From Shewanella decolorationis S12 (GTDB lineage: Bacteria; Pseudomonadota; Gammaproteobacteria; Enterobacterales; Shewanellaceae), in contig NZ_AXZL01000076.1 in the NCBI RefSeq assembly GCF_000485795.1, positions 559,895-583,894 on the forward strand: a stretch of 24,000 nt of DNA. Direction: 5' to 3'. Both the position numbers and the translations under genes were made by a program. Shown piece after piece: positions 2,748 through 20,238 of this stretch (position 1 is the stretch's first letter; every line of letters starts with the position of its first letter). The notes beneath the pieces were generated by a model. It was not told the origin of the DNA. It did not search any database and was given only the letters and a program-made list of their open reading frames with translations.

Positions 2748-3038
2748 ATTGCGGCCTTACGGCCGAGATGAATCAAAGTCGTGGGTCTTCAACCCACACC
2801 CGACCAAGAGGGGATCAACAGCAATTCCCTCTTGGATCTCCCTTGCCGCCCCTAGCGAAGTTACATGCATTAGAGACTGGCCTTGGTCTTATGGATAAAT
2901 TGCTATCGCTTCCGAAGGATGCGTCCCTGCACCTGCGAAAGCTAGCCGGTCATCCATGACCGGACTCACGCAATTTATTCCAACGCCCCGCGGCAACTTC
3001 GCAGGGGAAGGTGAACTGCTGGTGTATTGGTGTTGGCT
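2748..3038 (+). repeat. Long (~290 bp) structured repeat, copy L; its outer 60 nt form REP-like unit U2. Candidate ncRNA or ssDNA-structure element.
   Basis: Aligns end to end with the reverse complement of 5506-5797, at roughly 85-90 % identity by eye. The copies differ by compensatory changes in three hairpins. They also share perfectly identical 69-nt and ~47-nt blocks. Confidence 0.85.
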
Positions 3039-3163
3039 GCGGTTAACTGAAAAAGATATACATGTTTCATCTTTGAAGAACATTAACACAAAAGTTTAAT
3101 AGATGGATGTAATTGATTATGCGATACTTTAGGTAACGTAGAAAACTCTAACTGGATTAATGA

Positions 3164-4204
3164 ATGTCTTCAGCAGCAACTGTACCTTCAACAGCTACGC
3201 CTACTAAACAACAGGTATTGTTGAAAGGATTAGAAAGCACAGGTGAGCAATCTTTTGCTCGTGTAGTCGGAGCGAATTACGGCTTCCGCATTTCTAATCG
3301 CTGGGAGAAAACTGCTGTTAATATTGACGAAGATATAAAGTCAACGAATAGCAAGTACCAAAATTGTACAGTTGATAATTTAGAGAACCTGGTTGATAGA
3401 GTCATTATATCGGCTAATCATCATTACACTATTTACAAAGTTTCACAGAAAGATGCAATCCAAATCAGGCAGGAATTGTCAGCCTTAGTTGGACAACCTG
3501 TTAACAATATCTTTGCTCAAACTTACCCCGCTTTAGTCGATTTTAACTCCGTTAATCCTGCCGCAGGGGAGTACCTTTGTAAAGTAGCTGATATGGGAGA
3601 TGGAATTGCTTGTATCTTTGCGTCTATAGTAAAAGAATCGCTACCAGGGTATCGAACTATGACTGCTGGAGTGATTACCTCACAGTACTTTCATACTGTC
3701 TTTGTACCTTACGCTGCCGATAGAATCGAGGTTCGGATAACAGATAATGCTCCAACAAGGTACCATGAGAAACACGCTACAGCGATCAAAATTGAATTCC
3801 AAAATATTATTGGTCAAAAAGGAGTTCACTACCCAACCACACAAGTGAATTTCTTTAAATGTATTGAATCTTATTTTAATGATCCAACTTCAGGTCGAAT
3901 AGCGCATGCAATTTTGACTACAGGTCAAGATAGTAAAGATGCGGAATTGAAAAGCTTACGAAGTAAAGATTACTGTGCCAGAACGCAGCAAGTTGTTGAT
4001 AAAAAGAACAACTTCAACTACGTTTGCCGGGCTATTTTACTTAGAAAGCCCTACACAGGAATCAGTACTGGTGAGATGGATATCAGCTTTTTTCCTCACA
4101 AAAACACATGGGAAGCAAATTTTTGCTGGTGCGTACAAGTAAAAAAACCGCAAACAAGTGCAGCTTTGAATTTAATCATTACTGATGCTATAGCGAGAAG
4201 CTAA
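3164..4204 (+). CDS. Hypothetical protein, 346 aa, no family recognised
   Basis: Long ORF in AT-rich DNA, where random ORFs of this size are unlikely. It is first in a tightly packed three-gene set; its stop is 2 nt before the next ATG. The SD is weak. Confidence 0.75.
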   Translation: MSSAATVPSTATPTKQQVLLKGLESTGEQSFARVVGANYGFRISNRWEKTAVNIDEDIKSTNSKYQNCTVDNLENLVDRVIISANHHYTIYKVSQKDAIQIRQELSALVGQPVNNIFAQTYPALVDFNSVNPAAGEYLCKVADMGDGIACIFASIVKESLPGYRTMTAGVITSQYFHTVFVPYAADRIEVRITDNAPTRYHEKHATAIKIEFQNIIGQKGVHYPTTQVNFFKCIESYFNDPTSGRIAHAILTTGQDSKDAELKSLRSKDYCARTQQVVDKKNNFNYVCRAILLRKPYTGISTGEMDISFFPHKNTWEANFCWCVQVKKPQTSAALNLIITDAIARS

Positions 4205-4206
4205 TA

Positions 4207-4620
4207 ATGAGTATTGAAAGTAGGATTAAGGAATATTCGGCTAGACTCGATCGGTTGGCCGAGAGGCTAAAAGATGAGGATTCATCTAATGTCAATATAT
4301 ACAGAAATTTCTTAACTTTTGTTTCTGATAATCCAGATCATACTTACTATCCAATAACTAAGTTACTTACTGCAGCCAAGTGTAAAGATGCCAATCAAGC
4401 TCTAGATGTGGCAAATTATTTCTCAGTGGGTAGAAATGCACTACTAAACGTTACATTTTGCTATTTTGATTTCGATGGCACTGATATCAGAATTGATAGA
4501 GAGTGCTTTATTGATAGCCTCAATAACAATACTCCACCTGTTGAAGATGAGACTGGTTATCCAATAGATAACTTCGAGCCATCGCGACTAGGTTTTTATT
4601 GTAACTTGATTAGCGAGTAA
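4207..4620 (+). CDS. Hypothetical small acidic protein, 137 aa
   Basis: ORF starting 2 nt after the upstream stop (gctaaTAATGagt). Its composition matches the neighbouring ORFs. No domain recognised. Confidence 0.7.
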   Translation: MSIESRIKEYSARLDRLAERLKDEDSSNVNIYRNFLTFVSDNPDHTYYPITKLLTAAKCKDANQALDVANYFSVGRNALLNVTFCYFDFDGTDIRIDRECFIDSLNNNTPPVEDETGYPIDNFEPSRLGFYCNLISE

Positions 4621-4628
4621 GTTGTGAC

Positions 4629-5462
4629 GTGAATAAAACCGATCAAGAGTTGTTTGAAGTTTTAATATCAACGCCAGAAGGTAAAAAGAAGCTTCAACAA
4701 ATAGCGAAATCTTGTGAAAATCATTATAACGCTTTCATAGATGTCCTATATGCTAGACTGGATACTATCTTTAAAAAGCTAGAAGATTCAAGGGATAAGC
4801 ATTTTTCACATGATGAAGATTCAATAACCGGAGTTATTGCTGGGCGGCTTGAAGAAGCCGGATATATTGCTACAGAACAAACAAAGAAAAATGGTGCTGT
4901 AGATTTAACTGTTCAGCTAGGTGATCATAAGTGGATTGCTGAAGCTAAGATAGCTTACTCAAACAGTAAAATATTAGAGGGATTGTTACAACTACTAACT
5001 CGTTATGTCACAAGAGACGAGCACGCTGGATTACTGGTTTATATCAAAAAAAACAATAGTAAAATGGTGTTAGAAGATTGGAAACGTTATTTAGAAGGTT
5101 GTGATGGTCTGAAATCGTACATAGCAAATAAAAATCCTGAAGTTAAAGATGATCTAGAGTGCATTCTTAACAATGTGGAAACTACCGATATTAATAATTT
5201 CTCTTTTAATTCTAAACATAATCTTGTCTGTGGTTCTTCAATTAAAGTCCAACATTTTTGTGCTGATCTTTATTTTAACCCTGCAGACATTAGTGGTAAC
5301 AGCAGTAAAAAACAAAGAAAAGACAATGCTATTAATAATTTAGCGAATTTATATTTTGAGCATTTAGATTCAAATAATAGTTTCGATAGTAATAAGTGTA
5401 TTGAGTTTTTAGAGAGATTGTTTAGAGATTTAGACCCCGACGATATAAGTCTAGACGAATAG
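4629..5462 (+). CDS. Hypothetical protein, 277 aa, with a PD-(D/E)xK nuclease-like core motif
   Basis: GTG start 8 nt after the upstream stop. Residues 60-125 read ...DEDSITGVIAGRLEEAGY...NGAVDLTV...HKWIAEAKIAY...LLQLLTRY. This fits helix-E / strand-D / strand-ExK / helix-Q of restriction-endonuclease-like folds (D92, E105, K107). The C-terminus is Asn/Asp-rich and of low complexity. Confidence 0.7.
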   Translation: MNKTDQELFEVLISTPEGKKKLQQIAKSCENHYNAFIDVLYARLDTIFKKLEDSRDKHFSHDEDSITGVIAGRLEEAGYIATEQTKKNGAVDLTVQLGDHKWIAEAKIAYSNSKILEGLLQLLTRYVTRDEHAGLLVYIKKNNSKMVLEDWKRYLEGCDGLKSYIANKNPEVKDDLECILNNVETTDINNFSFNSKHNLVCGSSIKVQHFCADLYFNPADISGNSSKKQRKDNAINNLANLYFEHLDSNNSFDSNKCIEFLERLFRDLDPDDISLDE

Positions 5463-5505
5463 GCTCCACGAAATATGGGACAGGCACAACTCTTTTGGGA
5501 TTTAG

Positions 5506-5797
5506 AGCCAACACCGATATAACAGAAGTTCACCATCCCCTGCGAAGTTGCCGCGGGGCGTTGGAATAAATTGCGTGAGTCCGGACATGGATGTCCGGCT
5601 AGCTTTCGTAGGTACAGGGACGTTGCCTTCGGAAGCGATAGCAATTTATCCATAAGACCAAGGCCAGTCTCTAATGCATGTAACTTCGCTAGGGACGCCG
5701 GGGGATTTCCAAAAGGGGAACAGGCGTTTTTCCCCTTTTGGTCGGGTGTGGGTTGAAGACCCACGACTTTGATTCACCTCGGCCGTTAGGCCGCAAT
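5506..5797 (-). repeat. Long (~290 bp) structured repeat, copy R (inverted relative to copy L); its outer end forms REP-like unit U3 (5741-5797)
   Basis: The reverse complement aligns with 2748-3038. It begins 44 nt after the stop of the third island ORF. Confidence 0.85.
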
Positions 5798-5858
5798 CAT
5801 TCACATACCCACAGCGATAATCTTGCCAATTCAAACGCTAAACAAACCAGCATTATTA

Positions 5859-5914
5859 TCGGGTGTGGGGTGAAGCCCCACGACTTTGATTTACCTCGGC
5901 CGTAAGGCCGCAAT
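5859..5914 (-). repeat. REP-like hairpin unit, copy U4
   Basis: The reverse complement reads attgcggccttacggccgaggtaaatcaaagtcgtggggcttcaccccacacccga. Its second stem gtgggg/ccccac covaries with gtgggt/acccac in U2 and U3. Confidence 0.75.
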
Positions 5915-5933
5915 CACTAAACTTCTACATAAG

Positions 5934-5984
5934 GTATGGGTTAAAGCCCCACGACTTTGACTTACCTCGGCCGTAAGGCCGCAA
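5934..5984 (-). repeat. REP-like hairpin unit, copy U5, abutting the stop codon of the 5987..6556 gene
   Basis: The reverse complement reads cttgcggccttacggccgaggtaagtcaaagtcgtggggctttaacccatac. It starts 2 nt after the TAG of the upstream minus-strand gene. Confidence 0.7.
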
Positions 5985-5986
5985 GA

Positions 5987-6556
5987 CTAACTTGCAACAC
6001 AAAGATTTTGCTGAATCTTCCAACGACGTTCCATGAGTGGAATCGAAAAACCATAACACACCACTACAATCAAAGGTTGAAGCTGAAAGCTCAACTCAGG
6101 CCATAACATAAAGGCTGCCACGCAAGCCACAGTGCGCACAATCGCATGCACAATGGCCACCTTTTGCGCCGCTAACACGCCGAAAACCAACCACATTAAT
6201 CCTGTTTGTACAGCAAGGGCGAAGGGCAAGGCTAAATAGTTTTCCATAAAAAAGGGAATACTGATGCTAAAGGTTAAAAAACTCATCCCCATCGCAGCCA
6301 AAAACACAGTCTCAAACCAATTACGATCAGCGCTTTTCTTGAAGGAGATATTCTCACCGGTGAGACGTGAGACTCCCATAGCAAGATAGACAATAGAACC
6401 CGTGCCGATAAATGTTGCCATCACCATTTGCGATGCTGGCAAAATAAAACTCAAGATAAACAATAGCGTCCATACAATCATGCCTGATACAGGCATAGCT
6501 AAAGCACGTTTTTGGCGGTATTCGATAAGTTGTTGATCCAGTGATTGATGTTGCAT
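5987..6556 (-). CDS. Hypothetical polytopic inner-membrane protein (~190 aa)
   Basis: Five or six hydrophobic segments. I prefer the internal ATG at 6556 (MQHQSLDQQLIEYRQK...), which is preceded by a strong SD (caAGGAGGcttaatcATG). The track start at 6643 has no such SD. Confidence 0.7.
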   Translation of the reverse strand: MQHQSLDQQLIEYRQKRALAMPVSGMIVWTLLFILSFILPASQMVMATFIGTGSIVYLAMGVSRLTGENISFKKSADRNWFETVFLAAMGMSFLTFSISIPFFMENYLALPFALAVQTGLMWLVFGVLAAQKVAIVHAIVRTVACVAAFMLWPELSFQLQPLIVVVCYGFSIPLMERRWKIQQNLCVAS

Positions 6557-6718: not shown

Positions 6719-7426
6719 TTACCCCTCAATATCACCAAGGCGAAGCGCAATACGAATCGCCTCTGCTGTGGTCGCTACGCCCAGTTTTATCCGAATATTG
6801 CGTAGATGGTTTTCAATTGTTCTTGTCGAAAGGCCGAGTGCAAGGGCGATATCGCCTTGTCGTTTACCTAATGCAGTCCATGACAGCACTTGCTTTTCAC
6901 GTTTTGAGAGCGTTTGAGTTTGCGGTTCTTGAGCCTCTAATAGACGACGAGCGGCGGCAAAAGCAGCGCTAGACAACAGAGTTAGCTCGAGGCGAGCCTT
7001 GGCGGAGCTGTCGATGGATTTGCCGCCAAGGCTCATTGCGCCCTCTAGGCCAAGGGGACCAAAGAAGGGAATTTGTAAGCCGTGTATACCCGCCCCTTTT
7101 GGTGTTTTAACGATATGATATTCTTCGTCTTTACCATCAATGGCCTTGGTCCAAAAAAAGGGTTGGGCAGTTTCCAAGATATGGTGAGTCACGGGGCACT
7201 GACGGATATAACTGGTAGCATCGACGGTTTTGCCATTGTCAAACCAATCGCCTTCAATCCAATAAATACGCTCTATGATGCCATCGAGACTCGAATAGGC
7301 TGAGAACAGGACAATTCTATCGTAACCATAAAGGTGAGCCCGCTGTCTAAGCCCTTGTTGAATAGCTGAAAAATGGCGACAAGTTTCAAATTCTAATAAC
7401 AAGCGGGTTATATCATCAGCGGGCAT
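6719..7426 (-). CDS. LuxR-family transcriptional regulator (LuxR solo: autoinducer-binding-like N-domain plus C-terminal HTH)
   Basis: The C-terminus LSKREKQVLSWTALGKRQGDIALALGLSTRTIENHLRNIRIKLGV is a canonical LuxR/GerE HTH. The ~160-aa N-domain has the size and layout of an AHL-binding domain. No luxI-like gene is present in the window. Confidence 0.8.
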   Translation of the reverse strand: MPADDITRLLLEFETCRHFSAIQQGLRQRAHLYGYDRIVLFSAYSSLDGIIERIYWIEGDWFDNGKTVDATSYIRQCPVTHHILETAQPFFWTKAIDGKDEEYHIVKTPKGAGIHGLQIPFFGPLGLEGAMSLGGKSIDSSAKARLELTLLSSAAFAAARRLLEAQEPQTQTLSKREKQVLSWTALGKRQGDIALALGLSTRTIENHLRNIRIKLGVATTAEAIRIALRLGDIEG

Positions 7427-9219: not shown

Positions 9220-10470
9220 TTAAGACTCGCTATCAACCAACTCGACTTGATGGGCCTTTTCGGTTTGATCGACTATGGTCAATACCGCGGTATCGCCAAC
9301 TACGTTGCAGGAGGTCAGCACCATGTCGATGATGCGATCCAGCGCGGCCACAATCGCAAAGGCTTCAATCGGCAGACCCATTTGATGGATTAACACCCCA
9401 ATCATCACCATGCCGCCACCAGGCACACCACCCGCGCCAACAGATAACAAAAAGATACTAAACAGTAGCGATGGCAGTTGCTCGCTGGTGATTGGCATTC
9501 CGAAGGCATTGGCAACAAAGAAAATTGCAATCGTGATATAAATCGCCACACCGCCCATATTCATGGTCGCCCCAAGCGGCACACCAAAGCCTGCGACGGC
9601 GCGATTCACCCCGAGCTTTTCCGTTAGGGTGCGCATGGTTACAGGAATGGTGGCATTAGAGCTAGCGGTAGACAGGGAAAACAGTACTTGCTCTTGGGTT
9701 TTCTCGCGAAAGCGCTTGGCCGAAATCGGTGTGAAGAACCCCACCGCCAGCGGATAGACCACAAAAATCCACAGTAATAACAGCGCCAGAATGATCACGA
9801 CATATTCGAGCACACTCATAAATACCGCCGCATCTAAGGTGGCGCCTAACTTAAACATCAGCGCAAACACCCCATAAGGCGCAAGGCTCATCACCACAGA
9901 AATCAGTTTCATCATGATTTTATTGGCGGTTTGAAAACCTTGTACCGCGCCAGCTACATGCTCGCCGAGGGATTTAATCACCCCGCCCAGCATCAGTGCC
10001 ATAAAGATCACTTGCAGCATATTGCCCGACATAAAAGCCGCCACCGGGTTACGAGGCACTATATCAATTAGCAGCGCCATTAAGCTGGGGAGTTCGGTCG
10101 CGGTAATGGCCACACCATCTGTGCTGCTCATATCGACGCCTTTACCTGGGTCGAGCAGTAATACGACTAATAGGGCGGTAGAGATAGCGACCAGGGTATT
10201 AACGATGTAAAAGCCGAAGGTTTTGCCGCCAAGGCGGCCAAAGCTTTTTAAGTCCTGCAGCTCACATACGCCGCAAACGATACTGACAAATACCAGAGGC
10301 ACGACCAACATCATGATCATATTGACGAACATAGTGCCGACGCCGCCAGCCAGTTCGACTAAATTGCCAGAAAAGAAGCCAATATCGTTTAGAAAATATT
10401 GCACTAAGGTGCCAAGAATAAGTCCCGCAAACAGACCGATAAAGATCCGTGTCGAAAGTGATTTAATCAT
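9220..10470 (-). CDS. Dicarboxylate/amino-acid:cation symporter (DAACS/SDF) family transporter
   Basis: 416-aa polytopic protein with the family blocks SSNATIPVTMRT and VPLGATMNMGGVAIY. Substrate cannot be assigned from the sequence alone. Confidence 0.85.
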   Translation of the reverse strand: MIKSLSTRIFIGLFAGLILGTLVQYFLNDIGFFSGNLVELAGGVGTMFVNMIMMLVVPLVFVSIVCGVCELQDLKSFGRLGGKTFGFYIVNTLVAISTALLVVLLLDPGKGVDMSSTDGVAITATELPSLMALLIDIVPRNPVAAFMSGNMLQVIFMALMLGGVIKSLGEHVAGAVQGFQTANKIMMKLISVVMSLAPYGVFALMFKLGATLDAAVFMSVLEYVVIILALLLLWIFVVYPLAVGFFTPISAKRFREKTQEQVLFSLSTASSNATIPVTMRTLTEKLGVNRAVAGFGVPLGATMNMGGVAIYITIAIFFVANAFGMPITSEQLPSLLFSIFLLSVGAGGVPGGGMVMIGVLIHQMGLPIEAFAIVAALDRIIDMVLTSCNVVGDTAVLTIVDQTEKAHQVELVDSES

Positions 10471-10860
10471 GCTTATGGTTTCCCCAAGTAGCTCATCTTT
10501 TATTCTTCATCTTCCTTGATGAGCAAAATCGCCATTCCCTTTTCGCTTCAGGCGGGGATAGTGAAACATGCTGGCAGTAAATTCAATGAATAAATTTACT
10601 TATTTCATTTTCAATTAAGCCAAACCCATCACAAAAATTTTGTATTTAACTGATTTTTATTAAAAATAAAATTATCGATTAATAATCACCCAGTTAAATC
10701 ACAAGTTGAAAAATCAAAATTTAAACAGTATTTAAACCAAATAAACACAATTAATCGATTAAGCCTGAATAAAGCTAGATTTAAAATCCAAATAAACATT
10801 TTAATTAGAATTAAAAACTACAAATCGTGATATTTACAGAGAGATGGGGAAGGATAACGA

Positions 10861-11733
10861 CTAACAATATGCCAGTAGCACTAGCTCGAGCCGATGCGCC
10901 AGCAGGTGCTGCTGTTTAATGCTAATACGTTGCTGAGTTAACCAAAGGCTTAATGGCCGCCAATTTTTTAAATCGGCTGACTGTAAATATTTAGCCTGAG
11001 GCGCTTGCTTGGCAAAGTCATCAGCGGAATTAATTTGTGGGATAGCGAGTAACTCGTTGGGCGCAAAAAGCGCTAACTGCGGCACAATACAATGGGTCAT
11101 GCCCGTTAAGGTATGGGCAATTTGCAACCCTGCGGGGTCAAGATCGGTAAAGGCAATAATCGGCATTTTACCTACCATCGCCTGTAAAAACTGTCGCACA
11201 CCAATGGGTGAATGGTGGCCGCTACCACGGTAAATCACCATAACGCGGCTAAGTTCGGCAGGTAGGCGCGCTTGAGTGATGGCATCGAATATATCTAGGT
11301 TTTCAACCACTAAGATGGCGTTAACATTAAGATCATGGCAAAGCTGCTCTGCTTCATCTAAGGGGATACGTAACGAAGAACGCGCAGACATCCCCACGGG
11401 AGATGACTCAAACCCGAGATACTTCAACAAAACATACTCGGCTTCGGGGCGAATACTCGCCAGCTTTTCATTCTGGCTTTGGGCGGACATGGCAATACGG
11501 TCTAGATTAAAATCCAGCGCCTGTAAATCGACGCCCTCTTTTGCCAACACGCCCTGGCGCAGCAACTCAAAATCCCGCGGCGCAAAACACAAATATTTTT
11601 CTGCACCATCCAGCTCGCCCACTTCTAACTCGCGGTAAATCGTTCGCCAATTCGGGGTGAGTTTCACCCTTGGAGAGCGGTTAAGATAAACGCCCTCCAA
11701 GAGTTGCAACTGCTGCCGACCTAGGCGAGCCAT
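10861..11733 (-). CDS. JetD/MksG-like Toprim-domain protein (DUF2220-like), short form of 290 aa
   Basis: AILVVENLDIFDAI (E144), then VMVIYRGSGHH, then IIAFTDLDPAGLQIA (D197, D199). This reproduces the E...DxD Toprim signature and spacing I associate with the Wadjet JetD C-terminal domain. It is the last gene of the operon and overlaps the upstream gene by 13 nt. Confidence 0.6.
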   Translation of the reverse strand: MARLGRQQLQLLEGVYLNRSPRVKLTPNWRTIYRELEVGELDGAEKYLCFAPRDFELLRQGVLAKEGVDLQALDFNLDRIAMSAQSQNEKLASIRPEAEYVLLKYLGFESSPVGMSARSSLRIPLDEAEQLCHDLNVNAILVVENLDIFDAITQARLPAELSRVMVIYRGSGHHSPIGVRQFLQAMVGKMPIIAFTDLDPAGLQIAHTLTGMTHCIVPQLALFAPNELLAIPQINSADDFAKQAPQAKYLQSADLKNWRPLSLWLTQQRISIKQQHLLAHRLELVLLAYC

Positions 11734-12944
11734 AATTCCACATCACGGATAATAAAGTTACCGCTGTAGATCGGATGGGGTTCGCCTAAGGGTTCTAACT
11801 CGAAATAGGCTTTATGCTCATCGGGTAAGCCGTCGTAGCCGCCAATCACTTGATAAATCCAGCTTTCAGCATCCCATGGCAGGGCTTTTTCGGCTAAGTA
11901 GTCGAGCGCCGACTGACGTAAGCCAGACTCAATCACATCAACAAAATAGGCATCTACGGCTTGCTTGAGTGGATTATCAGGAATATCAAAGTCTTCACTC
12001 TGAGTAAGCGACACGCTCACATCCTGCTCACGCACTGTTTCTATCACGCCCTGACGGCTAATCGCCTTGATATGGGCGACGATGTTCATCAGCTCAAACT
12101 CTTGGCTGGCGTTATGCACATCCACAGACGCTGGGGCCAACAGCACTTCGGCGCGATTGAAAAGGCTTGGGATTTCCTTGTGCGACACATGGTCTGCAGG
12201 GCGATAATCAGGATGCAAATCTGTGTACAGTAACCAGCCCTTAAGCAAGCGAGTACGACCACGAATTTGCCTAAAGCGCCCGAGAAGTTCCAGCAACCTA
12301 CCCTGCACCACACTGAGTTCCTGGGCGCAGTCGCTCATGGTCTCCTGCAAGGTCGTGACCAGCAACTTACGCAACTCACGGATATCACCGGCGATTTCAC
12401 CTAATTCGCTAAACTGGAACATCTCCAAACCATTGAGCAATTCAGACACTTGGCTCTGGGCGAGTTCGTTTTCACGGATCTTAGCGTTAATGGTGCCGAC
12501 ATAACCGAACTCGTTGTTGATCCGCCCCCACAACACGCGGATGGAGTAGCGCAAACTGTCGGCAAAGCTATACACATGCTCACTTAAATCAGACAGATAC
12601 GCCTCGGCGGCGCTGTAGTCTGAGCTGTGGCGCGCCTCTTTATAGTGGTCGGCCAAGGTCTTAATGGTGGCGAGCGCCGAGCCGACGTTGGAGTCGATTT
12701 GGCGATTGCGCTCATCACTTAAGCCCTCTTCGAGCAAGGCACGCACCGAGCGTTTAAGGCGCAGCTCTTGGTCTGGCTCTGGGCGCCATAAAATCCCCGC
12801 CTGCTTGAGTTTTTCAACCACGGCGGGATCATGGCTCTCTTCCTTGAGCGAACCGGCCAGATAGGCATCCATAATGATGTCAGCATGGCGACCTAACTGT
12901 TTGAGCAGCTTCACCCCAGCCTGATGTAAGTTACTGCTCATCAC
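11721..12944 (-). CDS. Putative kleisin-like subunit (MksF/JetA-analogous), 407 aa
   Basis: Assignment rests only on position between the KITE-like and Toprim genes, on size, and on predicted helical character. No diagnostic motif was seen. A strong SD (ccAAGGAGGccgtgATG) precedes the start. Confidence 0.35.
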   Translation of the reverse strand: MMSSNLHQAGVKLLKQLGRHADIIMDAYLAGSLKEESHDPAVVEKLKQAGILWRPEPDQELRLKRSVRALLEEGLSDERNRQIDSNVGSALATIKTLADHYKEARHSSDYSAAEAYLSDLSEHVYSFADSLRYSIRVLWGRINNEFGYVGTINAKIRENELAQSQVSELLNGLEMFQFSELGEIAGDIRELRKLLVTTLQETMSDCAQELSVVQGRLLELLGRFRQIRGRTRLLKGWLLYTDLHPDYRPADHVSHKEIPSLFNRAEVLLAPASVDVHNASQEFELMNIVAHIKAISRQGVIETVREQDVSVSLTQSEDFDIPDNPLKQAVDAYFVDVIESGLRQSALDYLAEKALPWDAESWIYQVIGGYDGLPDEHKAYFELEPLGEPHPIYSGNFIIRDVELWLA

Positions 12945-12983
12945 GGCCTCCTTGGTTGATGCTATGCGTTATTGTCCAAGGCA

Positions 12984-13646
12984 TCATAGTAAATCCCGCT
13001 GCGTCGCCGTTTCCGCCTGCGCTTCAAGGCTTAGGCCTTCGGTCTCGTCGATAAAGCGGATCACTTCGTACAGGTAATCCAGCTTGCCGGTGGCGATATA
13101 AATTTGTTTTTCAACGTTAGGGCGCACCAGATAACCAAGCTCCACTAAGCGTTTGAACACTAACTTAATTTGCGCATCACTATTGGTACTGGTTGAGCCG
13201 AATAAGCGGTATTGGCTGAGTTTGGCCAACTGCTCACGAAACGCGGGCGTATCTTCAATTCGGCTTTGCAGCTCTGTTAATCGCACTGGCGCGCCTTCGC
13301 TTAAGGGAGCATCTTGGCCGCTGGCTTCCTGCACTAATACCAGCCACTCCACCATGGGGATAAGTGCCTGACAAATATCCTTAAACTGCGATGAAATCAC
13401 CTTGCGCTCGCTCTCGCCTAACTGCAAATAACCGCAGAAAAACACATCCCCCTCGGCGGCCGAAGCCACGGTGCGATTGATTTGATTAAGATAAGCCTCG
13501 ACCCGCTCGCGGGTACTGTGATTTTTTAATGCGCGCCAGCCATCTTCATTGGTGGTGCGGCAAATAAACTCACCTTTTAGCAAGAGTTCGATAATGGCGC
13601 CCGTGCCGACTAATACGGTTTGGTTTGACTCATTCATGGCACTCAT
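12984..13646 (-). CDS. MksE/JetB-like (KITE-type) subunit, 220 aa
   Basis: The N-terminal pattern IIELLLKGEFICRTTNEDGWRALKNHSTRERVEAYLNQI...AAEGDVFFCGYL resembles the LLKG-x-hh...W..L....V..Y...G.aF pattern I recall for DUF4194/MksE proteins. Its ATG shares one base with the stop of the SMC-like gene (TAATG). Confidence 0.5.
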   Translation of the reverse strand: MSAMNESNQTVLVGTGAIIELLLKGEFICRTTNEDGWRALKNHSTRERVEAYLNQINRTVASAAEGDVFFCGYLQLGESERKVISSQFKDICQALIPMVEWLVLVQEASGQDAPLSEGAPVRLTELQSRIEDTPAFREQLAKLSQYRLFGSTSTNSDAQIKLVFKRLVELGYLVRPNVEKQIYIATGKLDYLYEVIRFIDETEGLSLEAQAETATQRDLL

Positions 13647-16600
13647 TAGATGGCCTCCTTGCTCAGGCGTTTACTCAACAAATCGGCAATCGGATTGGCT
13701 TTGGGCTTCACCACCTGCAACTTCTTGGTTTGTTTATTAATAATGTAACGGTTCTCGAACAGGTTCAGCACTTCTGACTCTGGGTTCGGGAAGGCGCCTA
13801 ACACGCTGATATTGTTGTTACCACAGGCATCGAAAATCTTCTTCACGTTGGTATGGTGCAGCGTACCCAGCTCGTCGATCGGCCAGTGAATGGTCACATC
13901 GGCACGGCCACGTAGCAAGCGCGTGAATGCCAACAGGAACTTACATAAAATCAGGTAAGCCATACCGTGGCTCGAGGATTCGTTCAGCTGTCTGTCGGTG
14001 CGGATAATCAGGTCGCTATTGCCCTCTTTGAGGCGCAACTCGATTTCCAGCAACTTAGCAATACCGCCGGTTAAGGCCGCGCGGCCAATAATGTCTAAGG
14101 CGCGGCGCATACTGTTGGTGTATTCCTCATCGGGCAGACCATTAAAGCCGTCGGCCTTCCATTGTTTGAAGGCTTTAACGAATTGCTCAAGCTCAGGCCA
14201 AAACTCTAATTCGCTGATCTTAGAGCGAATGCGGACCGCAGATTCCGATACGCCATCGAGGAATAACTCTTCGCCCACTTCGCGGGTAATACGCGCACTC
14301 TGGGAGGCGATTCGACGATCGATATCGGCAAGTACATCGTAGAAGGCGGTTAAATCGACCCCGAAGATCCGTCCCTGTTCACGCAGCGCCATAATCGATT
14401 GCGGCACCATCACATTGAGTAACTGTTCTAGCTGCGGCACAAGCTTGCGGTAATCCAACAGGCGAATACCTTTGTCGTTGATAAAGCTCGACTCTTCACG
14501 GGCGCGCTCCCAAGTCTCGGCTAAACCTGAGCCTGACTTGCTGGCAATCACAGAGTCGAAATGCTCCACATATTGCTTAACCGAGCCCATCAAATAATCG
14601 CGTTTTAGCAGTAAATCTTCGCCCTGACGCAGGCGCTCACCAAGGCTACCCTGGGCCTCTTCATTGTTGGCGGGCAATTTCAGCTCGGCCAACTTACGCA
14701 TCACGGCGCGCAGTTTAGTTAAGTTTTCAGAGGCTTCAATCTGCGCCGCATCCGAGGCCTTACGCTCGGTCTCGAGTTGTTGGCGGCGGGTCTTCACTTC
14801 TTGAGTCTTGGCTTTAAGCTGCTGATCGATTTCCGAGGCGGCGCGTTTCACGTCGCTTAACTGGGTTTGCAGCTTGGGCTTACGGATAAGCCAAGTGTGT
14901 TGATACCAATCGTCGAAGCGCAATACTTCGCTGCGACGCTGCTCGGCGCGGCTGATTTTGGTTTCAAGCTCACGGATTTGTTGCTTGAGTTTAAGGATAT
15001 TGTCCTCATCCACACCACGGGATTTAAGCTCGTTTTTGTACCAGGTTTCACAGGCTTTTTGCTCGGCCTTAGCGCTTTCGCGGCGGGCGTCGATAGTCGC
15101 CTTGATTTGCCCGAGTTGATTGTCGAGCGCGCCAATGACTTCCTGCCAGTAGGCTTGTTTTTCCATCCGCGCTTCGAGCGCCTGCTCCTTTTGCTCTTCG
15201 AGCCAGAGCTGATGCTGATGCTTAAGCTGCTTTAGCTCGCCATCGAGCTGAGTTAAGCGCTGCTGGGCAAAGGCTTTACGCTCGGCCAGCGCCTTGTTGA
15301 TCTTGTCCTGCTCACTGCGTTTTTCATCGAACAGACGACGTAAATCATCGCGGCTATTTTTGTAAGCCGTGCGGGCAAAGGTGAGTTCACGACTGAGTTT
15401 ATCCAGCTCAACGTTAATCGCCACCAGCAGAGATTCGGCCTCGGCCTGTAATTCCTGCGCGCTTTGCAGAGCCTCTTCGGCCTTGCTTAAACGAATACGC
15501 AGTTCCTGCTCTGAGGCGGCATATTCAGGCACATCGATGGCTTTAAGATCTAAATGCACCCCAAACACAGTGTCGCTCTCGCCCGTGACCGTTGGGTGTA
15601 AATCGGTGCGGTGCAACAACTCGGGGGCAATCACTTTACCCAGACTCTGCTCCCAACCTTGGGCTTCCTTACGCAGGAATTCGAGCAAGGTATGGGACTG
15701 CGGGAACAGCATATGGTGCAGTTCATCGAGCGCGGTTTGGCGCTCGTTAACCCGCAGGCTGGCGATACGCAGCGCTTCGTTAGCTTGGTCGCGTTTGGCG
15801 CGCAGCTTACGCTCATCGCTAGTTAAGCGTTCCACCTTAGCGTTACAGCTTTCTTGCTCTTCGTCGGCGCGGTGAATCCGCTCGTCGAAAATCGCAAGGC
15901 TTAACTTTTCTTCCTCGGTGTAGGTCACACCATCGACACGTAATTTAAGCTCGGCGGCATTGAGTTTGAATTGATATTCCTGCTCGCTAAAGCTTGCCTT
16001 GCCCGCATCCATTTGGCTGCGCCATTGGGCTTCGAGGGCATCGAGATCGGCTCTTGCCACTTCACGCTGTTTGTCGCGCGCTTCGCGTTGCTTGTCTTGG
16101 TCCGCGTGTAAGCCTTCGAGCTCGCGGTTTAACTGCTCGCCAATTTTGCTGCGGCGGGCATTGTAAGCCGCTTCAATATCTTGGTGTTTTTCGGTTTGTA
16201 ACTTATGGCGCTCGCTTAAGTTTTCCATGTCCGCGCGCCAGTTTGGCAGCATGTCCAAGTCAGCCTTAGCTTGCTCAATATTGGCATCTAAAAAGGCGCC
16301 GTGCTGATCTTCAATGGCATCTAACTCATACTCGCACTTAGCCACATCGCCCTTGGCGGCGGATAGGTCGAGGTTTAACTCATCACGCACTTCTTTCCAT
16401 TCGTCATCCAACATTCGAAGCTTTAAATTCAGCTCCTTAGACAAGGTTTGTTGGATCTCTAACCGATCGGCCTCTAAGGTTTCGTCATTGCGATAGCCAC
16501 GGGACAGGCTCGAGAGACGCATCTCGGCGCTGAGCAGTTGGTTAAATTCCTGCTCGAGCTTTTCAAACTCGGGACGAATGACTTCAAAGCCTTGGATTAA

Positions 16601-17317
16601 CTGGCTCTCGCGGATCCACGCCTCGACGCGTTGCGGATTGAGGCGTGAGCTAGGTGGATTTACCCCGTCTTCTTCCAAAATGGCGGCGATCATCGATTTG
16701 ACCGTTTCCATTTTGCCTTCTTTGGAGTGCACCGCCTTGGCGAGTTTTTCGATATGGCGCAGTGAATGCTCACCTTCACACAGGGCAAATTGGCGCGCAT
16801 AGGCTCGCAGTTCGCTACGGTTGCTGCCCGTGCTTAACAAAGTGCGATCGTTTTGAATAATCGCGCGATATTCGCGGGTGTTGAGCAAGTTGGTGGTGGC
16901 TACGCCCTGGCGTTTTAAATCCCGGCCGAGTTCTGCCATGGTGTGGCAGAGAATAGTGTCACCATTTTGCGATTTAATATAATCGCTTAACTCAAAACCT
17001 TTGGCGATAAAGCGGTAGTTCACCCCTTTACCATCACCCGCCGATGCCAGCACGGCTTGATAGAGCAAGCCATCGGCCTTTTGGTATTCGTAAATGATGT
17101 AGCTTGAATCGTGTGGCAAGTACCAACGCTCGAAACTATCGCGGGTTGAAGGCACCACGCGGCTAGGATATTCGCCATAAAATACCGGCACTAAACGTTG
17201 CAGAGTGGTTTTACCCGAGGCGTTAGTACCACAAATATTGGTATGGCCATTGAGGGCGAGTTCCACAACGCCCGGAAGGTGCGTATCAATCAGCACAATA
17301 CGAATCAAGCTTGGCAT
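13646..17317 (-). CDS. SMC/Rad50/MukB-like ABC ATPase with long coiled coils, 1223 aa (DUF3584-like)
   Basis: The Walker A motif GTNASGKTT (res 30-38; nt 17204-17230) was verified by translation. Roughly 600 residues in the middle are E/K/R/Q/L-rich with heptad-like character. The C-terminal head has SSSHGMAYLIL (signature-like) and VTIHWPIDELGTL (Walker B; D1148/E1149 at nt 13871-13876). Confidence 0.8.
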   Translation of the reverse strand: MPSLIRIVLIDTHLPGVVELALNGHTNICGTNASGKTTLQRLVPVFYGEYPSRVVPSTRDSFERWYLPHDSSYIIYEYQKADGLLYQAVLASAGDGKGVNYRFIAKGFELSDYIKSQNGDTILCHTMAELGRDLKRQGVATTNLLNTREYRAIIQNDRTLLSTGSNRSELRAYARQFALCEGEHSLRHIEKLAKAVHSKEGKMETVKSMIAAILEEDGVNPPSSRLNPQRVEAWIRESQLIQGFEVIRPEFEKLEQEFNQLLSAEMRLSSLSRGYRNDETLEADRLEIQQTLSKELNLKLRMLDDEWKEVRDELNLDLSAAKGDVAKCEYELDAIEDQHGAFLDANIEQAKADLDMLPNWRADMENLSERHKLQTEKHQDIEAAYNARRSKIGEQLNRELEGLHADQDKQREARDKQREVARADLDALEAQWRSQMDAGKASFSEQEYQFKLNAAELKLRVDGVTYTEEEKLSLAIFDERIHRADEEQESCNAKVERLTSDERKLRAKRDQANEALRIASLRVNERQTALDELHHMLFPQSHTLLEFLRKEAQGWEQSLGKVIAPELLHRTDLHPTVTGESDTVFGVHLDLKAIDVPEYAASEQELRIRLSKAEEALQSAQELQAEAESLLVAINVELDKLSRELTFARTAYKNSRDDLRRLFDEKRSEQDKINKALAERKAFAQQRLTQLDGELKQLKHQHQLWLEEQKEQALEARMEKQAYWQEVIGALDNQLGQIKATIDARRESAKAEQKACETWYKNELKSRGVDEDNILKLKQQIRELETKISRAEQRRSEVLRFDDWYQHTWLIRKPKLQTQLSDVKRAASEIDQQLKAKTQEVKTRRQQLETERKASDAAQIEASENLTKLRAVMRKLAELKLPANNEEAQGSLGERLRQGEDLLLKRDYLMGSVKQYVEHFDSVIASKSGSGLAETWERAREESSFINDKGIRLLDYRKLVPQLEQLLNVMVPQSIMALREQGRIFGVDLTAFYDVLADIDRRIASQSARITREVGEELFLDGVSESAVRIRSKISELEFWPELEQFVKAFKQWKADGFNGLPDEEYTNSMRRALDIIGRAALTGGIAKLLEIELRLKEGNSDLIIRTDRQLNESSSHGMAYLILCKFLLAFTRLLRGRADVTIHWPIDELGTLHHTNVKKIFDACGNNNISVLGAFPNPESEVLNLFENRYIINKQTKKLQVVKPKANPIADLLSKRLSKEAI

Positions 17318-17380
17318 TTCATTCCTTATCCAAACGGGAGCACCTTATGCACAAAGCGAACGATAAGGTCATCCAAAAGC

Positions 17381-17419
17381 GGCCTAAGACTTCATAAATC
17401 AGCGTTAAAAGTCTTGGCC
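17381..17419 (-). terminator. Large hairpin between ttrR and the SMC-like gene: possible ttrSR terminator or a leader structure
   Basis: On the minus strand: ggccaagactt - 16-nt loop - aagtcttaggcc (11 bp, one bulge), followed by gcttttgg. The T-run is short and the loop is large. Confidence 0.3.
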
Positions 17420-17435
17420 TTAAAAGTTAGCCCCT

Positions 17436-17464
17436 AAAATAAGGCAATCGTCGAGCCTTGGCAA
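17436..17464 (-). promoter_or_regulatory. Candidate sigma70 promoter for the SMC-like operon
   Basis: Minus strand: TTGCCA, 17 nt, TATTTT. It lies ~120 nt upstream of the ATG at 17317. Identified by eye only. Confidence 0.25.
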
Positions 17465-17541
17465 TTAAGCACCTAGGGCTGAATGCGTTAGCTCACATCA
17501 AACGGCCAAGGATACGCCAATTCGCGCGAACAAGGGCGGTT

Positions 17542-18153
17542 TTATGTGGGGGCAAGGCGATCGGCAATCCGGCCGTAGATTAATATCATCTCGGCGAGCG
17601 AGCCGACCTGCATGCCTTTCATTAAGTTCGCACGGTGAATTTCGACCGTACGCATAGCGATGCACAGCGTATCGGCAATCTCCTGATTCTTATAGCCTTT
17701 GGCGATAAGGGTAAGGATTTCCCGCTCCCGCGGTGTGAGAGTCTGATAAGTCTGAAGATATTGATTATCTTGATAATGCGCCTTGGCATGCTCTAGCGCT
17801 TTAACGACTGCGTCGGCCAACTTGGCACCATCGGCGGGCTTTTGGAAAAAATCCACCGCCCCGAGTTTTAGCGCCTCCACCGCCATGGGCACATCGCCAT
17901 GGCCAGTCAAATAAATCACAGCCAACGGACTATTGTGCTGCACTAATTGCGCATGTAATTGCGGCCCACTTAAGCCCGGCATACGCACATCGACTAAGGC
18001 GCAGCCAGGCTGGCTTAAGTCGATGGCGGCAAAAAACGCCTCGGCGCTATCAAAGTCGCGGATATTCAGGCCATAGCTTTCGAGCATAAACCGCAGCGAG
18101 CGGCGCACCGACTCATCATCATCGATTAAATACACGGGCAATGCGTGGCTCAT
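17542..18153 (-). CDS. ttrR: Tetrathionate response regulator (REC plus LuxR/FixJ-type HTH)
   Basis: Receiver domain (DDDESV...VDVRMPGLSG...) plus the HTH LTPREREILTLIAKGYKNQEIADTLCIAMRTVEIHRANLM. It overlaps the kinase gene by 4 nt. The locus is arranged as ttrSR divergent from ttrBCA. Confidence 0.8.
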   Translation of the reverse strand: MSHALPVYLIDDDESVRRSLRFMLESYGLNIRDFDSAEAFFAAIDLSQPGCALVDVRMPGLSGPQLHAQLVQHNSPLAVIYLTGHGDVPMAVEALKLGAVDFFQKPADGAKLADAVVKALEHAKAHYQDNQYLQTYQTLTPREREILTLIAKGYKNQEIADTLCIAMRTVEIHRANLMKGMQVGSLAEMILIYGRIADRLAPT

Positions 18154-20138
18154 GCTGGTGCTCCATCAAACTTACGGGGTAAGGATACCTGCGCTTGGCA
18201 GCCGCCACTTAAAGCGGTTTCTAGGCTAAAGCGGCCGCCATGACTCTCGGCGATATCACGGCAAATCACCAGCCCTAGCCCTAAGCCCTCAGACTTAGTC
18301 GAATAAAAGGCCTGCATCAGCAGATTGGCATCCTCAGTTAAACCTGTGCCATTGTCTGTGACCGTGAGCAGTAGCTTGTGTTCTTGGTAACGCAGGTCGA
18401 TATCAATCGTGGGCTGATAGGGTTTCGACGCATCGACCTCGCTCTGCTGGCGTTGCACACAGGCATCGGCGGCGTTTTTCAAAAGGTTGAGCAATAGTTG
18501 CTGCATGCCCACTTCATCTAAAGGCAATTGATAGGCTTCGCCGCTCACATTGGTCGAAAGCTGGATATGGTGCTGCTCCAGTTCATAGGCGAGCAGCGGC
18601 GCAGTATCGTTCACTAACTGATGTAAATACAGAAGCTGCTTAGACACAGGCCGCTTTTTCAATAAATTACGTAAACGGCTGATAATACTGTCGGCGCGGC
18701 TGACTTCTTGCTGGATTAAAGTCAGCACGGATTGTAATTCTTCAGGACTCGTCCCTCGTTGTAAACGTACCTCGGCGCCATGGCAATAATGGCCAATCGC
18801 CGCCAAAGGTTGATTGAGTTCATGGGAGAGGCTCGCCCCTAACTCCCCCGCAATCGCAATCCGCTGGGCATGCTCCAACAGGGCGCGGTTTTCACTGAGT
18901 TGTCTCTGGGTGTTTATCAACTCACGGCCGCGGCGACTAAAACGATATTCTAGCCAGAAATGGTACACATTGAGCAATACCAATATGGTTAACACAAACC
19001 ATGCCCAATGTTGATGCAGTTTTACCCATTGCCACGCCCGCTGCCACCAAGGCGTTTGCAGGGGATGCATATCGAGATCTTTAAGGAGTTGATCTATCGC
19101 CAGTTGGCTAACGGCCGTGGTCCAACCCGCAGATTCAGCGGCTTTAGCGGCGGGACTGTCCTCGGGTAGGGCAAACAGGGCTTGAGTCACCTGTTTTGCG
19201 AGCGATTGAGTCGCACGGTTGGTTTTAGCCATAGACCAGTTGGGGTATAACCGACTCGACACTTGGCAATGAAACCCCGCTGGCGCCTGATTATCGAGCA
19301 CCCGATAATTTTGCAGCTTGATCAAACCTTCAGCCTGCATTTGCTCAAGCTGACATACAGGCACGACCGCTGCATCTAAACTTGGGGATTTATCGCTTGG
19401 CTTATCTGCCGCACCGAGCTGATAAATAAGGTTATCGAGTGGAAAGCCTAAGGGAATAATCTCCCCCACAAAATCAGGTAAATCTATGCCCTTAAGCTGT
19501 GCCTCATAAACTAAAGTAAGATAACCACCAAAGGCATTTTTGGAGACAATTCCAAGGCGCTTGCCCTTAAGATCCTGTAAGGTCTGATAGGGTGAATCGG
19601 CTCTGACCACCAGCGCAGACCCCACTTGCATCGCGGCGCCATTATTGATTGGGCTTCGTAGGGTGGCGAGCCAAGACAGGGAAAATTGCCGCGCCAACAT
19701 CACCGACTGCCCAGGGTTAGTGATAACAAAGTCCAACGCTTCGGTTTCAACGCCTTTGGCTAATTCTTCAATGCTTAAAGGATGCAATCTAAAGTAACTA
19801 TTAGGTATTTGCGACTCAAGCCAGCCCATCAAAGGCTGCCAACGATTGACTGTGCTCTTATAGCCCCGAATGGCCAATACGCCTACATCGACCACTTGAT
19901 AACCCGCCTCGGAAGACAAAGTCGCAAGACTGTCGCTAACCAAAGCGTTATTTGCATCGAGGGCGGCTAAGGTAAGGGATGTTGATGATTCTGTGGTGGA
20001 CTCTTGCCTCCCAAGCACGTTAACTGCGGCAGGATTCACGCCCGTGCTTGACATGGCAGCAGGGCTACACACTAATAATATCAATAAGATGATAAGCGTA
20101 TTACTAGGCCATCGCGCAGCACAAAAGCCAACGCTCAT
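18150..20138 (-). CDS. ttrS: Tetrathionate sensor histidine kinase with a periplasmic PhnD/PBP-like domain
   Basis: Contains the HisKA H-box LSHELNQPLAAI and ATPase blocks NLLKNAADA, DNGTGL and GLGLGLVICRDIAESHGG. The ~330-aa periplasmic region lies between two TM segments. The track start at 20204 is a TTG. I prefer the ATG at 20138 (MSVGFCAARWPSNTLIILLILL...), but the start is uncertain. Confidence 0.8.
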   Translation of the reverse strand: MSVGFCAARWPSNTLIILLILLVCSPAAMSSTGVNPAAVNVLGRQESTTESSTSLTLAALDANNALVSDSLATLSSEAGYQVVDVGVLAIRGYKSTVNRWQPLMGWLESQIPNSYFRLHPLSIEELAKGVETEALDFVITNPGQSVMLARQFSLSWLATLRSPINNGAAMQVGSALVVRADSPYQTLQDLKGKRLGIVSKNAFGGYLTLVYEAQLKGIDLPDFVGEIIPLGFPLDNLIYQLGAADKPSDKSPSLDAAVVPVCQLEQMQAEGLIKLQNYRVLDNQAPAGFHCQVSSRLYPNWSMAKTNRATQSLAKQVTQALFALPEDSPAAKAAESAGWTTAVSQLAIDQLLKDLDMHPLQTPWWQRAWQWVKLHQHWAWFVLTILVLLNVYHFWLEYRFSRRGRELINTQRQLSENRALLEHAQRIAIAGELGASLSHELNQPLAAIGHYCHGAEVRLQRGTSPEELQSVLTLIQQEVSRADSIISRLRNLLKKRPVSKQLLYLHQLVNDTAPLLAYELEQHHIQLSTNVSGEAYQLPLDEVGMQQLLLNLLKNAADACVQRQQSEVDASKPYQPTIDIDLRYQEHKLLLTVTDNGTGLTEDANLLMQAFYSTKSEGLGLGLVICRDIAESHGGRFSLETALSGGCQAQVSLPRKFDGAPA

Positions 20139-20238
20139 CGCTGTTTGGAGTATGTAAAATAACGTCCTGTACAATACTTCGTCCCCATAACTTACAAAAA
20201 ACAATCACAGCAGAATGCGCTATTGTAGCGAATATTTG

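Follow-up and report, generated by a model that had tools for sequence, protein, structure and literature searches.

A structural maintenance of chromosomes (SMC)-type operon of four genes lies on the minus strand (10861–17317) of a 24,000-nucleotide stretch of the Shewanella decolorationis S12 genome (contig NZ_AXZL01000076.1, positions 559,895 to 583,894 of the forward strand), here called the window, in whose numbering all positions are given. We consider it likely that this operon encodes an SMC-kleisin-KITE complex together with a Toprim nuclease, that it represents a separate lineage, and that its three-gene core has been domesticated in Shewanella for damage tolerance. A further-reaching version is only tentative, and on balance we lean against it: that the cassette, whose ATPase belongs to the family DUF3584, is a fourth independent SMC-kleisin-KITE lineage, and that Shewanella presents a living domestication series, with nuclease-armed mobile copies, some chromosomal copies that still have four genes, at least a dozen independent losses of the nuclease, and a core that already has a housekeeping role in dealing with crosslinks or replication-blocking lesions. 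A preliminary description of the same DNA, made from its sequence without database searches, had recognized the operon; the conserved locus that behaves as vertically inherited, the optional nuclease and the fitness data, which point to DNA-damage tolerance, lay outside its view.

Subunits of the operon

All four open reading frames (ORFs) are carried by the minus strand, and they are indeed co-directional and coupled, as the preliminary description had claimed. In order, they are the gene for the SMC-type ATPase (13646–17317; 1223 amino acids (aa), Pfam DUF3584), the gene for the KITE-like protein p220 (12984–13646; 220 aa, MksE-like, for which NCBI often uses an internal Met that gives 217 aa), the gene for the kleisin candidate p407 (11721–12944; a 407-aa ORF with a GTG start) and the gene for the Toprim nuclease candidate p290 (10861–11733; 290 aa, Pfam DUF7281). 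The stop codon of the ATPase gene overlaps the p220 start in TAATG, the Shine-Dalgarno sequence AAGGAGG lies upstream of both p220 and p407, and the p407 and p290 reading frames share 13 nt. The four genes are translationally coupled. Because p407 homologues are nearly all 405–406 aa and an ATG immediately follows the GTG in the window copy, the true p407 start is probably at 12941 (ATG), which would give a product of 406 aa.

The ATPase had been characterized as a 1223-aa Walker A, coiled-coil and Walker B protein of the DUF3584 rather than the JetC type, and both statements agree with what was found. Pfam DUF3584 (PF12128) spans the protein with 1815.7 bits (cutoff 31; residues 8–1195 against positions 1–1191 of the 1191 in the model), whereas the PADLOC JetC1 models cover only residues 1–42 (18.7 and 12.4 bits). 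The Walker A motif GTNASGKT (residues 30–37), a signature-like SSxG motif (S1115, S1116 and G1118) and the Walker B motif (D1148-E1149) are invariant in the ATPase alignment, including homologues at 20–22% identity. Single-sequence and profile searches of PDB sequences returned only coiled-coil or helical noise for the ATPase, p220 and p407. An AlphaFold2 model of ATPase residues 1–1200 (mean predicted local distance difference test score (pLDDT) 71.4) exhibits an SMC layout, with a split head, two helical arms of ~310 residues each and a short apex. The N-terminal half of the head (~1–227) is followed by an arm (228–537), the hinge (~540–600), a return arm (603–925) and then the C-terminal half of the head, which contains the SSxG motif (1115–1118) and Walker B; confidence is highest in the arms (pLDDT in the 80s) and low in the head and hinge. 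When this model was compared with the PDB using Foldseek, the top matches were MukB (7nyx_A, E 2.5e-16) and the Wadjet-II JetC (9qe0, E 2.7e-16), with condensin, Smc5/6, Rad50 (3.9e-5) and type-I JetC (5.6e-5) at lower ranks; template modelling (TM) scores are low, as expected with long flexible rods. The ATPase is predicted from its modelled fold to be of SMC type and closest to MukB and JetC. Helix breaks in the model at 345/794 and 375–378/767–771 are nearly equidistant from the hinge (~192/191 and ~162/166 residues), as would be expected of an arm discontinuity or "elbow" in an SMC protein.

A Rad50/SbcC- or RecN-like double-strand-break repair ATPase, encoded beside unrelated accessory proteins, would also be in keeping with the cisplatin sensitivity of mutants (see below), with the N-terminal similarity to Smc, RecF and RecN that Price et al. 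noted by HHsearch (bioRxiv 10.1101/072470), and with the one NCBI record in which an ATPase homologue is named "ATPase involved in DNA repair". No CxxC zinc hook was found in the apex region (~540–600) of the ATPase, however, and the operon contains no gene for an Mre11/SbcD-type phosphoesterase. In addition, Rad50 has a lower rank in the fold comparison (3.9e-5, compared with 2.5e-16 for MukB/JetC), and the partner proteins match MksE and MukF. We find such an identity scarcely credible, and it was rejected for want of a hook or an Mre11 partner and for its lower fold rank.

The 220-aa product had been likened to MksE and JetB, and the MksE half of this comparison is borne out by Pfam: p220 matches the MksE family with 28.6 bits (cutoff 27), and its homologue on an Aromatoleum plasmid does so with 34.5 bits. 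Some NCBI and UniRef records name p220 homologues "condensin complex protein MksE". The match of p220 to DUF4194 (16.4 bits) is under the cutoff of 32.7, the PADLOC JetB models gave no match to p220, and the IFDR motif of type-I JetB was not found in its N-terminus. When the p220 family profile was aligned to the single sequence of E. coli MukE with hhalign, the result was not significant (probability 1.6%).

For the 407-aa product, proposed earlier as a possible kleisin, support comes from structure prediction. Profile searches, which connected p220 to MksE and p290 to Toprim as had been anticipated, failed to connect p407 to any family, with nothing in Pfam or PADLOC and nothing above cutoffs in NCBIfam. 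A Pfam search with 41 close and 95 distant p407 relatives likewise gave no transitive link to MukF, JetA or MksF. The family comprises 248 representatives at 50% clustering, nearly all of ~400–420 aa. In its AlphaFold2 model (mean pLDDT 75.9), p407 consists of an N-terminal winged-helix domain with a helical bundle, long helices, a disordered linker (~296–322) and a C-terminal winged-helix domain (325–406). The best PDB matches in Foldseek are MukF chains, led by 9gm7_C (E 4.6e-3, probability 0.97) and 1t98 (probability 0.98) and also including 7nz2 (7nz2_C1), 3rpu, 3euh and 9gmb; JetA (8q72_E) first appears at rank 41. Based on its predicted fold, size, domain layout and operon position, p407 is likely a kleisin. 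Most NCBI and UniRef records label this family "phosphoenolpyruvate carboxylase". That identity was rejected, as p407 has neither a PEPcase domain nor any other Pfam match, and the label on its homologues looks like a propagated misannotation; the database annotation of the kleisin candidate is corrected by the present analysis.

The fourth product, p290, had been assigned the E...DxD signature of a JetD-type Toprim protein, and similarity to JetD_C and to Topo VI-A is consistent with this assignment. The strongest match is to Pfam DUF7281 (PF23947; 130.8 bits, cutoff 27), followed by TOP6A/Spo11 Toprim (27.6 bits) and JetD_C (22.8 bits, cutoff 22). The PADLOC JetD1 and JetD3 models match p290 with E ~1e-5, and the p290 family profile matches the Topo VI-A Toprim domain 2zbk (E 4.4e-4). 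The Toprim core (~110–285) contains the catalytic residues E144 and D197-x-D199, with E144, D197 and D199 invariant across the family. Residues 1–109 match no family and contain a conserved R79 and an NEK motif (88–90). With 290 aa, p290 is short relative to the 345–430 positions of the PADLOC JetD profiles, and its alignment begins at about profile position 180; Toprim lengths are 267–290 aa in cassettes outside Shewanella and 244–373 aa within the genus. Overall, p290 is a candidate JetD-like Toprim nuclease. In the Shewanella intestini locus (L047, 13769–14935), the Toprim-bearing segment, which runs from stop to stop, is longer than in the other copies by ~85 residues rich in Ser, Thr and Gln; this extension may lie upstream of the true start.

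Distribution, conservation and proposed function

Related cassettes are found on plasmids. A plasmid protein search returned full-length ATPase homologues at 22–27% identity, and the SMC-first four-gene cassette was found at 17–31% identity on six plasmids of Beta- and Gammaproteobacteria (107 kb to 1.17 Mb; Aromatoleum, Acinetobacter, Vibrio vulnificus, Marinobacter, Pseudomonas silesiensis and Rhodoferax). These six intact cassettes match the window in gene order and gene sizes, they often adjoin transposases, a DNA methyltransferase, a RES-domain gene or helicases, and in Pfam plasmid cassettes give DUF3584, MksE, no match and DUF7281. In a further copy, on Vibrio campbellii plasmid pLA16-1 (L085, 5935–12377), both the ATPase (ORFs of 112 and 1100 aa) and the kleisin candidate are broken into two, which suggests a decaying or frameshifted cassette. 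Among the nine best-covered plasmid ATPase matches (65–99% coverage), six were examined as intact cassettes and one is the frameshifted copy; all nine carrier plasmids measure 107 kb to 1.17 Mb. These carriers are above the size range of roughly 50–100 kb that type-I Wadjet is reported to restrict, which could spare the carrier plasmid. The idea that all carriers exceed a limit of ~100 kb is weakened by partial or divergent copies (H10, H27 and H28) on Acinetobacter plasmids of 40–55 kb, and the pattern is not clean.

A complete cassette with intact Toprim motifs is also present in a phage record (L091, 3684–10039; PP438435.1, Dolichospermum phage Dfl-JY45, 209 kb), where its four genes show 31%, 43%, 37% and 30% identity and every one is annotated as hypothetical. 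On the chromosomes of Stutzerimonas, Azotobacter, Thiocystis and Corallincola, a close subfamily occurs between housekeeping flanks, with core proteins 54–70% identical. Because all four of these non-Shewanella chromosomal loci keep the Toprim gene, the four-gene state is likely ancestral.

The SMC-KITE-kleisin-Toprim order noted beforehand in the window thus extends to its relatives, with the SMC gene first in all >50 loci examined, and its recurrence in over 40 Shewanella loci, four other chromosomal genera, six plasmids and the phage record is far beyond chance. It had been suggested that standard Wadjet profiles may miss the system, and a PADLOC run on the window and on plasmid copies agreed: the two plasmid cassettes tested were not recognized as Wadjet and gave no JetC match. 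Papers up to 2025 recognize Wadjet types I–III, MukBEF and MksBEF only, and our literature search found no description of the cassette as a Wadjet type or under the names DUF3584 or DUF7281, which supports the earlier suggestion of an undescribed Wadjet-like subtype. From these comparisons, the cassette appears to be a distinct and widespread lineage, because the PADLOC JetA, JetB and JetC models fail and because neither sequence nor profile searches of the PDB match the ATPase, KITE or kleisin proteins. Could it still be a divergent member of Wadjet I, II, III or MksBEFG that profile searches have missed? The cassette shares their four-part composition, weak matches to JetD1, JetD3 and the N-terminus of JetC1 were seen, and PADLOC describes JetC1 as having a "DUF3584 domain". 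Set against this, no JetA or JetB model matched and JetC reached only 42 residues (window and two plasmid cassettes tested), the gene order is inverted in all >50 loci, and the Toprim protein is short and has a Pfam family, DUF7281, of its own. We therefore regard a missed Wadjet type as highly improbable, and an identity as canonical Wadjet I–III was rejected on the grounds of the failed profiles and the inverted gene order.

All complete loci from 78 Shewanella and Parashewanella species keep the ATPase, KITE and kleisin genes in one order (67–100% identity), and the same symporter gene lies downstream in most Shewanella loci. The locus behaves as vertically inherited and syntenic in 75+ species, and not as a mobile defence island. 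The Toprim gene follows a different pattern. In a census using a hidden Markov model (HMM) of the family, it was found in 40 of the 75 scorable loci and is missing from the other 35, two further loci being truncated; an earlier count by single-query tblastn, which risked under-calling divergent Toprim genes, had the same split. Loci without it have 344–744 bp between the kleisin gene and the symporter gene. Its presence and absence require at least 12 state changes on a neighbour-joining tree of the ATPase, which is a gene tree of one protein.

Toprim sequences also diverge about twice as much as those of their neighbours, with 33–46% identity within the genus compared with ~80%; outside the genus, the values are 33–34% compared with 54–70% for the core proteins. 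In the clade of the window, the ratio of nonsynonymous to synonymous substitution rates (dN/dS; a simple Nei-Gojobori estimate, with dS 0.6–0.9) is 0.034 for the ATPase, 0.031 for the KITE, 0.022 for the kleisin, 0.029 for the symporter and 0.128 for the Toprim gene. The motif patterns fit 34 of the 40 Toprim copies, and the catalytic E and DxD are kept in the six that deviate (five read directly; the S. intestini copy seen in part). These results suggest that the core genes are under housekeeping-level constraint, and that the Toprim gene is relaxed relative to them (dN/dS 0.128), optional, and repeatedly lost in Shewanella. The nuclease appears to be still functional where present, yet dispensable.

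The same data bear on whether the S12 operon is mainly an active defence against plasmids and other mobile genetic elements, with a Wadjet-like mode of action, an SMC core that senses small circular DNA by extrusion, a Toprim subunit that cleaves it, and a chromosomal phenotype that is secondary. All four genes are intact and coupled in S12, the Toprim catalytic residues are invariant and the gene is under purifying selection (dN/dS 0.13), and the distant cassettes always retain the nuclease and lie on plasmids with neighbours of the kinds named above. A defence role is harder to reconcile with housekeeping flanks and genus-wide synteny, with a core that evolves like housekeeping genes and unlike arms-race genes, with the half of the species that have the core but not the nuclease, and with a published phenotype that concerns DNA damage and three genes only. 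We consider active defence an unlikely main role for the S12 operon, and prefer a three-gene core domesticated for damage tolerance.

Evidence for this function comes from published transposon fitness data, in which DUF3584 mutants are specifically sensitive to cisplatin in three Shewanella species and the DUF3584 gene is cofit with the two genes downstream, both annotated as hypothetical (Price et al., bioRxiv 10.1101/072470). That study suggested involvement in segregation or repair, with no mechanism and with the partner proteins unrecognized. MukBEF and MksBEF have been proposed to derive from Wadjet by loss of the nuclease, along a path in which the core first acts on the chromosome and loss of the nuclease then "locks" it as a chromosome module (PMC10586767; bioRxiv 10.1101/2025.03.10.642339). 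In Shewanella, such a trajectory from Wadjet to chromosome module appears to be in progress.

In the proposed mechanism, the ATPase would dimerize through its hinge, the N- and C-terminal winged-helix domains of the kleisin would bridge two ATPase heads, and a KITE dimer would be seated on the kleisin. The resulting ring would load onto DNA and then undergo ATP-driven translocation or loop extrusion, and the Toprim subunit, where present, could be licensed to cut DNA. The four-gene cassettes on plasmids and in the phage record most likely serve as weapons against competing DNA, in the manner of Wadjet. In Shewanella, the three-gene core is expected to support tolerance of replication-blocking DNA damage, and the core ring would act at chromosomal sites such as stalled or crosslinked replication forks. 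The Toprim protein, where Shewanella has it, would provide Wadjet-like cleavage of foreign circular DNA; it would be dispensable in this genus and dropping out lineage by lineage. With all four genes intact in S12, both activities may coexist in this strain. We presume that Shewanella carries a canonical MukBEF as well, which would make the DUF3584 complex a second one.

Several observations weigh against this interpretation, beginning with the subunits. The KITE and kleisin assignments are the weakest links of the analysis. The MksE match of p220 clears the Pfam cutoff by only 1.6 bits, the Foldseek statistics linking p407 to MukF are modest (E 5e-3 to 3e-2, TM 0.2–0.3), and a comparison of p407 with a viral library, a rough negative control, returned unrelated helical matches of similar E-value and lower probability. 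Alignment of the p407 profile to E. coli MukF with hhalign was not significant (probability 1.1%). Coiled coils may supply part of the Foldseek signal of the ATPase, because its head and hinge are modelled at low confidence. The phage record is also problematic: its cassette region has 63–69% GC, which is odd for a Dolichospermum phage. The GC content of Dolichospermum is ~40%, and because the two are hard to square, the stated host of PP438435.1, or its status as a phage, may be wrong. As for the phenotype, the cisplatin data come from other Shewanella species and the effect could be indirect. The same DUF3584 mutants also show a motility phenotype, and cisplatin sensitivity was reported for three genes, with the share of the Toprim gene unreported (bioRxiv 10.1101/072470).

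If Shewanella does present a living domestication series, sister species with and without the nuclease would permit direct study of the transition from Wadjet to MukBEF/MksBEF. The published hypothesis derives chromosomal complexes from defence systems that lost their nuclease, so far without intermediates. Shewanella provides a natural experiment, with an orthologous locus that has the nuclease in some species and lacks it in others, in a genetically accessible genus for which transposon fitness data exist. This makes it possible to test directly how an SMC nuclease system is altered on its way to a chromosome-maintenance module, and whether SMC-KITE complexes take part in bacterial crosslink repair.

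Neighbouring features of the window

Ordinary chromosomal genes flank the operon. The symporter gene is on its downstream side and a two-component system on its upstream side, with genes for fructose-bisphosphatase and NrfD-type proteins farther out; the proteins of the window share 99% identity with those of Shewanella xiamenensis and S. cutis. An AT-rich intergenic region on the minus strand (10471–10860; GC 0.40 in its 1-kb bin) separates the operon from the conserved sodium:dicarboxylate symporter gene (9220–10470). The upstream intergenic region (17318–17541, minus strand) contains a sigma-70-like site at 17464–17436 that agrees with the consensus at 9/12 positions scanned. It is probably the operon promoter, on weak evidence, with sites in 17318–17541 no more numerous than in shuffled sequence. 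The two-component system (17542–20204) consists of a histidine kinase with a periplasmic phosphonate-binding-type domain and a LuxR-family response regulator. As its synteny with the operon is confined to the closest relatives, the two are probably unrelated.

Farther away, the window has a low-GC stretch at 3001–6000 (0.36–0.41, compared with ~0.50 elsewhere), which may be a small acquired island. It contains three co-directional ORFs (3164–4204, 4207–4620 and 4629–5462), none with a Pfam family, the last of which has a weak PADLOC match to the candidate system PDC-S54 (E 8.9e-6). The LuxR-type regulator encoded at 6719–7426 includes an autoinducer-binding domain. The scanned ORFs showed no LuxI-type synthase gene next to it, and the regulator may be a LuxR solo. 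Scans of the window with Rfam and for tRNAs gave no matches, and neither did DNA searches at near identity against genomes and plasmids of E. coli.

Comparison with known systems

The cassette most closely resembles Wadjet/JetABCD (types I–III; also called MksBEFG or EptABCD) in its overall design. Wadjet combines an SMC ATPase of MukB/JetC-type fold, a KITE, a kleisin with winged-helix domains at both ends and a Toprim protein with the E...DxD signature. The cassette has a counterpart of each: an ATPase with this fold in its model, a KITE candidate with a marginal MksE match, a kleisin candidate whose terminal winged-helix domains are predicted, and a Toprim protein with the signature. Both systems are found on plasmids. 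However, the genes of the Shewanella-type cassette run C-B-A-D rather than A-B-C-D, its proteins are not recognized by the PADLOC JetA, JetB and JetC profiles, and its kleisin is an orphan family. Its Toprim protein (DUF7281) is ~100 residues shorter than JetD, apparently without the N-terminal part of the JetD CAP domain. The Shewanella locus further differs in being strongly constrained and, it appears, vertically inherited.

The nuclease-less MksBEF of Pseudomonas aeruginosa is, as we suppose for the Shewanella complex, a second gammaproteobacterial SMC-kleisin-KITE complex with a role in chromosome maintenance and a supposed nuclease-armed ancestor, and the Shewanella loci without a Toprim gene would be its direct analogue. 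It differs from the cassette in gene order and in sequence family, with only the MksE Pfam model matching, and that marginally; in addition, about half of the Shewanella species retain the nuclease, so that the transition would be incomplete. The best structural matches come from MukBEF of E. coli, with MukB closest to the ATPase and MukF to the kleisin candidate, and the subunit sizes are near those of MukE (234 aa) and MukF (440 aa). In contrast, there is no Pfam MukB, MukE or MukF match, hhalign comparisons with MukE and MukF are not significant, the ATPase is ~260 residues shorter than MukB, the order is reversed relative to mukF-mukE-mukB, and a Toprim partner is present.

The DUF3584 genes described by Price et al. 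(2016 preprint, bioRxiv 10.1101/072470) belong to the same ATPase family and the same three-gene unit, with the orthologues Sama_0592–0594. The partners were called hypotheticals without a family in that study, and the KITE and kleisin identities, the Toprim gene and the mobile relatives were not recognized there. The present analysis adds the mobile relatives, an optional nuclease and a core constrained like housekeeping genes. The cassette adds a lineage that standard defence-finder profiles miss, with an inverted order, an orphan kleisin and a minimal Toprim protein. Its ATPase and Toprim protein are core members of DUF3584 and DUF7281, and every MukBEF sequence test fails. Because the JetA, JetB and JetC profile tests and the gene-order test fail and the JetD-like subunit is truncated, we place the cassette outside Wadjet I–III; the best reading is that it is a fourth lineage of the MukBEF/Wadjet type, and not something categorically new.

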